Of a stretch of DNA of 56,870 bases, positions 7,650-8,183 are shown piece after piece. The stretch is taken from the IMG/VR virus record IMGVR_UViG_2850796239_000009; one strand, 5' to 3'. The stretch comes from a virus. Its lineage: Duplodnaviria; Heunggongvirae; Uroviricota; Caudoviricetes. A program made the position numbers and the translations under genes. The notes beneath the pieces are model-generated. The model searched no databases. It saw nothing but the letters and a program-made list of their open reading frames with translations, and was not told the DNA's origin. How positions within the stretch are numbered: the stretch's first letter is position 1; each line of letters starts with the position of its first letter.

Positions 7650-8183
7650 ATGAACGTAAAAATCAGATACAGCCTGTCGGCTGCTGTTCTGGCACTGATT
7701 GCCGCCAGTGCTCCTGCCCCTGACATTCTCGATCAGTTTCTGGATGAAAAAGAGGGGAATCACACCACTGCATACCGCGATGGCTCCGGCATATAGACCA
7801 TCTGTCGGGGAGCAACGATGGTGGACGGTAAACCTGTTATTCCGGGAATGAAACTGTCGAAGGAAAAATGCGCCCAGGTTAACGCCATTGAGCGGGATAA
7901 GGCGCTGGCATGGGTGGAGCGCAATATAAAAGTTCCACTGACCGAGCCACAGAAAGCCGGTATCGCGTCATTCTGTCCCTATAACATTGGCCCTGGTAAG
8001 TGTTTTCCGTCGACGTTTTATAAGCGGCTTAATGCCGGTGATCGTAAAGGCGCATGCGAGGCGATTCGCTGGTGGATAAAGGACGGTGGACGTGATTGCC
8101 GCATTCGTTCAAATAATTGTTACGGTCAGGTTATTCGTCGTGACCAGGAGAGTGCATTAACCTGCTGGGGGATAGAACAGTGA
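7650..8183 (+). pseudogene. rrrQ: SAR-type endolysin (lysozyme) interrupted by an in-frame amber codon
   Basis: Single frame MNVKIRYSLSAAVLALIAASAP...EGNHTTAYRDGSGI-TAG(7794-7796)-TICRGATMVDGKPV...; the E-x8-D-x5-T catalytic spacing is cut by the stop. Confidence 0.8.

Follow-up and report, generated by a model that had tools for sequence, protein, structure and literature searches.

Results

The window, by which we mean the whole stretch of DNA that was analysed (56,870 nt, an IMG/VR virus record), contains a prophage at the Qin/ydfJ locus and ends in ydfJ. Its gene order is that of the K-12 Qin prophage (relBE-hokD ... Q ... holin-ydfR-rrrQ-rzpQ-cspI ... pinQ-ydfK-ydfJ), with collinear blocks at 86-98.6% identity. 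A Q-type late antiterminator gene precedes a lysis cassette consisting of a pinholin gene, ydfR, a lysozyme gene and an Rz-type spanin gene in which an Rz1-like lipoprotein ORF is embedded. The coordinates of these features, together with those of the insertion sequences and of a second gene with an in-frame amber, are collected in Table 1.

Table 1. Features of the prophage discussed in the text (positions refer to the window)
Feature	Position	Strand	Remarks
Q-type late antiterminator gene	3521..4342	+	273 aa; precedes the lysis cassette; its L008 copy matches PF03589
tRNA-Met(CAT) (4486-4561) and tRNA-Arg(TCT) (4663-4739)	4486..4739	+	only tRNA genes of the window; neither is a suppressor
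Phage 21-type pinholin gene	6742..6957	+	71 aa, open; Arg45 (CGG, 6874-6876) in TMD2; PF04971
YdfR/DUF1327 gene	6962..7306	+	114 aa, intact; between holin and lysozyme
rrrQ-type phage lysozyme (GH24, SAR endolysin), predicted pseudogene	7650..8183	+	177 codons, one internal amber
In-frame TAG, codon 49 of the lysozyme gene	7794..7796	+	ancestral codon TGG (Trp49); G to A at 7795
48-codon N-terminal fragment, translated part of the lysozyme gene	7650..7796	+	K4/R6, weakly hydrophobic SAR-like segment (~residues 7-24), E35, D44; without T50 and lysozyme body
121-codon ORF from ATG 7818	7807..8183	+	Shine-Dalgarno-like GGGGAG (7807-7812), 5-nt spacer, ATG; product without SAR domain and without all 3 catalytic residues
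Rz-type spanin gene (DUF2514)	8180..8677	+	165 aa, open; GTG start overlaps the lysozyme stop (GTGA, 8180-8183)
Embedded Rz1/rzoQ-like lipoprotein ORF	8373..8627	+	84 aa, open; lipobox LTSC
Nu1/NohD-like small terminase gene with second amber	12350..12895	+	TAG at 12704-12706 in place of the ancestral Ser codon 119 (TCG), through a C to A change at 12705
921-bp IS5-family copies	10672-11591, 20286-21208, 49839-50761		
IS4 copies	15024-16329, 34617-35923		
IS66-family element	32524-34491		

Several further elements accompany these genes. Downstream of the Q antiterminator gene come the genes for tRNA-Met(CAT) and tRNA-Arg(TCT), and after them, where Q and the holin flank a cargo position, a PmrD-like gene (111 aa, 5651-5986, minus strand) and a DUF1737 gene. 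Rfam models placed the sRNA STnc100 at 5436-5625, a cspA-type thermoregulator 5' UTR at 8883-9298, before the cspI-like gene (9040-9252), and, inside or beside the tfa gene (52989-53564), the RNA family 'IS009' at 53332-53530. On the minus strand, an antisense ORF of 90 aa (7272-7544) lies between ydfR and the lysozyme gene. RefSeq relatives list it as a 'hypothetical protein', but in the otherwise intact relatives L017, L019 and L021 it has an amber of its own at codon 59, and it probably does not represent a gene.

Translation of the lysozyme frame from ATG 7650 to TGA 8181-8183 gave 177 codons, with the TAG at 7794-7796 as the sole internal stop. The catalytic residues are found on both sides of this stop: E35 (7752-7754) is followed by GNHTTAYR, D44 (7779-7781), G-S-G-I, the stop itself and T50 (7797-7799), and the amber takes the last of the five spacer positions between D44 and T50 in E35-x8-D44-x5-T50. 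E-X8-D-X5-T is the canonical triad of a 'true lysozyme' (PMC9239132). With Trp restored at codon 49, residues 33-167 matched Pfam PF00959 (Phage_lysozyme) with 86.4 bits (cut-off 22.3), and E35, D44 and T50 have the register of 3HDE, in keeping with the E-x8-D-x5-T motif of GH24. The agreement with the lysozyme motif is not due to chance. Frame, Pfam match and register together bear out the original prediction, which had described an endolysin gene with one amber inside its catalytic motif.

The N terminus of the deduced protein has the basic residues K4 and R6, followed by YSLSAAVLALIAASAPAP (7 Ala, 3 Ser), and residues 1-28 have a mean Kyte-Doolittle hydropathy of 1.3-1.6. A SAR domain is described as a TMD of weak hydrophobicity, rich in small residues, that comes after basic residues at the N terminus (PMC9239132). 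A pinholin partner, as expected for a SAR endolysin, is encoded at 6742-6957, where PF04971 (phage 21 holin S) matched with 105.8 bits. By these features, the gene of the window fits the SAR endolysin type. An uninterrupted ORF, as a functional GH24 lysozyme would have, is precluded by the TAG at codon 49, while the other GH24 features that we tested are present; judged by its sequence, the window's copy is a pseudogene of the GH24 family and no functional member of it.

To determine the ancestral codon, we aligned the gene with intact homologues. In E. coli 2013C-4282, rrrQ (WP_001101173.1) is one base apart from the window's 534-nt gene, with G instead of A at 7795, which restores TGG. The K-12 gene, whose product is identical to that of the window in 165 of 177 residues, likewise has TGG at codon 49. 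A 34-mer across the site was found with TGG in 65 IMG/VR contigs. Every complete copy among these is open (61/61), and in 13 IMG/VR copies position 7795 is the sole difference from the window's gene. Close intact relatives with a sense codon at the site thus exist and the ORF is otherwise preserved, which is the pattern expected of a nonsense pseudogene. The ancestral codon 49 was TGG (Trp), and a single base has changed, both as the original prediction had proposed.

We next turned to other carriers of the amber allele. The window is 100% identical to CP026875.1 (GCA_002950355.1) over 16.2 kb. The TAG allele is also present in AERN01000079.1, which is part of GCA_000193915.2, and in QWSH01000190.1 (GCA_003572355.1); GCA_000193915.2 is the assembly of Shigella boydii ATCC 9905 (PMC6397287). 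AERN01000079.1 and QWSH01000190.1 have eight differences from the window in common, all outside the lysis cassette, and at least two genotypes therefore carry the amber. The allele is identical in all three assemblies, a PacBio complete genome and two independent drafts, which come from different groups and chemistries; the earlier argument that the stop is no sequencing artefact is upheld by this reproducibility. A 61-nt probe centred on TAG had no exact match in the complete E. coli genomes (0/5426) and returned 240 one-mismatch records, and exact-pattern scans for the 34-mer with TAG found none in GTDB species representatives, JGI metagenomes and IMG/VR. The amber allele is genuine and restricted to a narrow lineage. 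Because the window is identical to CP026875.1 and has the amber allele in common with S. boydii ATCC 9905, the best explanation is that the host has a Shigella boydii-like genome.

The prophage carries many other lesions, which we scored against the intact references E. coli C9 L092, L025/L026 and L019. Six IS copies are present in 57 kb, namely three 921-bp IS5-family copies, two of IS4 and one IS66-family element. In the portal gene, IS4 has inserted close to the 5' end, and a 10.8-kb integrative element splits the gene as well. Frameshifts were found in the tape-measure gene H (~41651-41672), twice in K (~43585-43603 and ~43788-43791) and in J (~46192-46213), and the side tail fibre gene stf is disrupted by an IS. 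The Nu1 gene is, apart from its amber, collinear with the intact 181-aa NohD; its amber allele was absent from the 5426 complete E. coli genomes and was seen in no fewer than six other public sequencing runs, in Logan read-set assemblies (e.g. SRR4787083, DRR015921 and SRR3793777). With this set of lesions, the prophage would no longer be able to make particles or to lyse the cell.

The integrative element of ~10.8 kb lies, together with a 921-bp IS5-family insertion, within the lambdoid portal gene (17186-28944). It carries genes for an integrase, AlpA, BRO, an Icd-like protein, a D5_N/DUF5906 primase and SSB. Also encoded are a major capsid protein similar to lambda E, a decoration protein similar to gpD, another AlpA and a small terminase similar to Nu1. 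The element occurs in 52 complete E. coli genomes with 99.5-99.9% identity and lay inside a prophage portal gene in both of the two genomes inspected. The window's copy is degraded: its integrase and primase genes are frameshifted and its capsid gene is damaged. The element looks like a phage satellite (PICI/cfPICI-like) that has a helper-type portal gene as its attachment site. A 66-bp repeat (94% identity) is found at 12129-12194, immediately before the Nu1 gene of the prophage, and at 27118-27183, upstream of the Nu1-like terS of the satellite. The two repeats may represent a duplicated cos region, as would be in keeping with packaging of the satellite by the terminase of its helper.

Other copies of the same prophage lineage were retrieved by means of the exact YdfR protein. 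The lysozyme gene was intact in L017, L019 and L021. A different lesion was found in CP026845.1, CP119446.1, JARKNR010000001.1, CP026846.1 and CP049278.1, in which codon 49 is TGG and one base is deleted at window position 8152, with a frameshift at lysozyme codon 168; several sister copies have a 1-bp deletion in Rz too (frameshifts at 8207 and 8259). CP049278 is S. boydii 600690, which belongs to clade 1b (PMC7545283). In the pinholin, L45R (CTG to CGG at 6875), which lies midway along TMD2, was present in all eight Shigella-type copies, those of the amber lineage and those of the frameshift lineage alike; residue 45 is Leu in K-12 EssQ, in all other E. coli loci examined and in 48/48 IMG/VR copies. 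We infer that L45R is probably a loss-of-function change in the pinholin. Since L45R is common to both S. boydii lineages, it would have come first, and the most economical history places it in their common ancestor, with the lysozyme lesions arising later and independently in each lineage.

Lesions were also observed in Qin-like prophages outside this lineage. In a different Qin-like prophage of E. coli (L012, GCA_025404015.1), an independent amber (CAG to TAG) replaces Gln29 of an rrrQ-type lysozyme. That locus adjoins a beta-lactamase/Tn3/IS cluster. Two other Qin-like prophages (L003 and L009) have upstream frameshifts or N runs at the lysozyme gene.

The downstream part of the gene is often annotated on its own. 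Public annotation frequently calls the internal start at Met57 (121 aa) despite an open 177-codon ORF (L004-L007, L010 and L011), and the 121-aa product is indexed in 190 blocks. Among ten public loci with 121-aa gene calls, six have fully open 177-codon ORFs and only one has the TAG. We had considered tracing the amber allele by its 121-aa ORF and rejected this, as most of the calls merely reflect the choice of a start site on an ORF that is intact. A natural start at Met 7818 in homologues, which the original prediction had named as evidence that would speak against it, was not borne out. The strong internal GGAG and the overlapping antisense ORF call are the likely cause of the internal-start calls on the lysozyme gene.

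Discussion

Taken together, the most likely account of the locus, and one that we hold with good confidence, is an inherited G7795A nonsense mutation that has left the SAR endolysin gene of a Qin-locus prophage as an ordinary pseudogene, through decay under relaxed selection. In a sup0 cell, translation would end after 48 residues and leave a short peptide targeted to the membrane, which has E35 and D44 and lacks T50 and the lysozyme fold. Reinitiation at ATG 7818, 22 nt past the stop, would yield a cytoplasmic fragment of 121 aa that has neither an export signal nor any of the three catalytic residues. No muramidase is expected from either product. The start of Rz and the stop of the lysozyme gene share the bases GTGA, and translation of Rz may therefore suffer too if ribosomes are not brought back by reinitiation. 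The lysozyme amber is one of many lesions in a dead prophage, probably brought about by drift in an IS-laden Shigella-type genome; both the loss of the enzyme and the neutrality of the amber are predictions from sequence. Nonsense decay of cryptic-prophage genes, notably in Shigella, has long been familiar, and the case is biologically ordinary. It may serve as a well-documented example of how the lysis module of a cryptic prophage is dismantled base by base in a Shigella lineage. We found no paper on a W49 amber allele of an rrrQ-type lysozyme in the literature.

One may ask whether knock-outs of the SAR endolysin were instead positively selected in Shigella lineages, as the original prediction had suggested by invoking selection against lysis competence. 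A resident SAR endolysin could be a liability because it is exported by Sec, can be released without a holin and lyses the cell whenever the membrane depolarises; holin-independent spontaneous release of SAR endolysins has been described (PMC9239132). In support of this idea, the same orthologous gene was hit by W49am and by the 1-bp deletion at 8152 in sister S. boydii lineages, further independent lesions occur in Qin-like prophages (the Q29 amber of L012, and the frameshifts or N runs of L003 and L009), and the IMG/VR copies are intact (61/61). However, IMG/VR is biased towards intact prophages, and the cases of L003, L009 and L012 come from a truncation-biased look-up. Moreover, Rz has been hit by frameshifts as well (8207 and 8259), decay affects the whole prophage, and the chance that four lesions all fall in R and Rz is p ~0.18 by length alone, with the coding bases of holin, ydfR, R and Rz adding up to 1593, so that the lesions per gene are about as many as length predicts. 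Selection against lysis competence is a possible cause of the lysozyme lesions, with drift as the default, and we regard an adaptive loss as unlikely. A more specific proposal, that the independent lysozyme knock-outs after the shared L45R represent a pathoadaptive 'disarming' of the prophage lysis cassette in S. boydii lineages, builds on the idea that a Sec-exported, depolarisation-triggered autolysin would be harmful to an intracellular pathogen, and appears to us quite unlikely. If the parallel knock-outs were selected, SAR endolysins would join the genes whose loss helps Shigella.

The original prediction had also raised suppressor-dependent expression, in which an amber-reading tRNA of host or phage would still allow full-length lysozyme, and Nu1, to be made. 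It is true that TAG is the outcome of both nonsense substitutions found in the prophage, and low-level natural UAG read-through occurs in E. coli. From the codon content of the lysozyme and Nu1 genes, however, TAG is the commonest nonsense outcome (46-57%), so that two ambers out of two have a probability of p = 0.21-0.33 and can be put down to chance. We searched the 56.9-kb window for a suppressor tRNA with a CUA anticodon and found none, tRNA-Met(CAT) and tRNA-Arg(TCT) being the only tRNA genes, and there was no signal of in-frame TAG enrichment across the window. Conservation of the TAG, as functional read-through would entail, was seen in no relative, with 0 other carriers against 65 TGG contigs. 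Read-through of the two ambers would, furthermore, not rescue the phage, because the portal gene, H, K and J are also broken. The analysis lent no support to suppressor-dependent expression, which we consider very improbable.

It is equally improbable that the fragments have taken on a new role, be it as a 48-aa membrane peptide or as a 121-aa cytoplasmic protein made from the internal ribosome-binding site. A good Shine-Dalgarno sequence and an ATG 22 nt beyond the stop would permit the latter, and the 121-aa ORF is often called as a gene. Against such a role, these calls are start-site choices on intact ORFs, the 121-aa fragment has no catalytic residue, and the split form is conserved nowhere else in IMG/VR. 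Annotators should therefore not rely on the 121-aa 'lysozyme' that is called beyond the stop as a genuine gene product. Finally, a sequencing or assembly artefact at 7795 has nothing more in its favour than the prior for any single-base call, and is extremely unlikely given that the same base stands in a PacBio complete genome and two independent drafts and that the change is a substitution and no homopolymer indel.

Decay by an inherited nonsense mutation can be set beside several known systems. Laboratory ambers in lysis genes, such as S21 68am and gp23.1am (PMC9239132), resemble the allele of the window in that a lysis gene carries an amber; they are conditional nulls that are expressed only in suppressor hosts. 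Those alleles were engineered or selected in the laboratory, whereas the allele of the window is natural, resides in a non-viable prophage and comes with no sign of a suppressor. With R21 of phage 21 (PDB 3HDE/3HDF) and RrrD of DLP12 (PDB 4ZPU), the lysozyme aligns in register and has the GH24 fold family in common, and its E35/D44/W49/T50 numbering is the same as in R21. The N-terminal basic residues and the weakly hydrophobic segment are also alike in phage 21, and a P21-type pinholin gene lies upstream in the window too. In contrast to this shared architecture, the sequence similarity to R21 and RrrD is only distant (E ~1e-16), the gene of the window is truncated and its pinholin has L45R.

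The closest counterpart in K-12 is RrrQ of Qin (b1554) in the cassette essQ-ydfR-rrrQ-rzpQ/rzoQ, which agrees with the window in its locus, abutting ydfJ, in its gene order and in 165 of 177 lysozyme residues. The window's copy differs by the amber at codon 49, where K-12 has TGG, and the prophage that surrounds it is larger than Qin, has kept head and tail genes and is riddled with IS elements. The pseudogenes of defective Shigella prophages, in turn, have single-base nonsense changes beside IS insertions, frameshifts, and lineage-specific lesions in one and the same gene. All of this is found here as well, and compared with those pseudogenes there is nothing distinctive about the case of the window.
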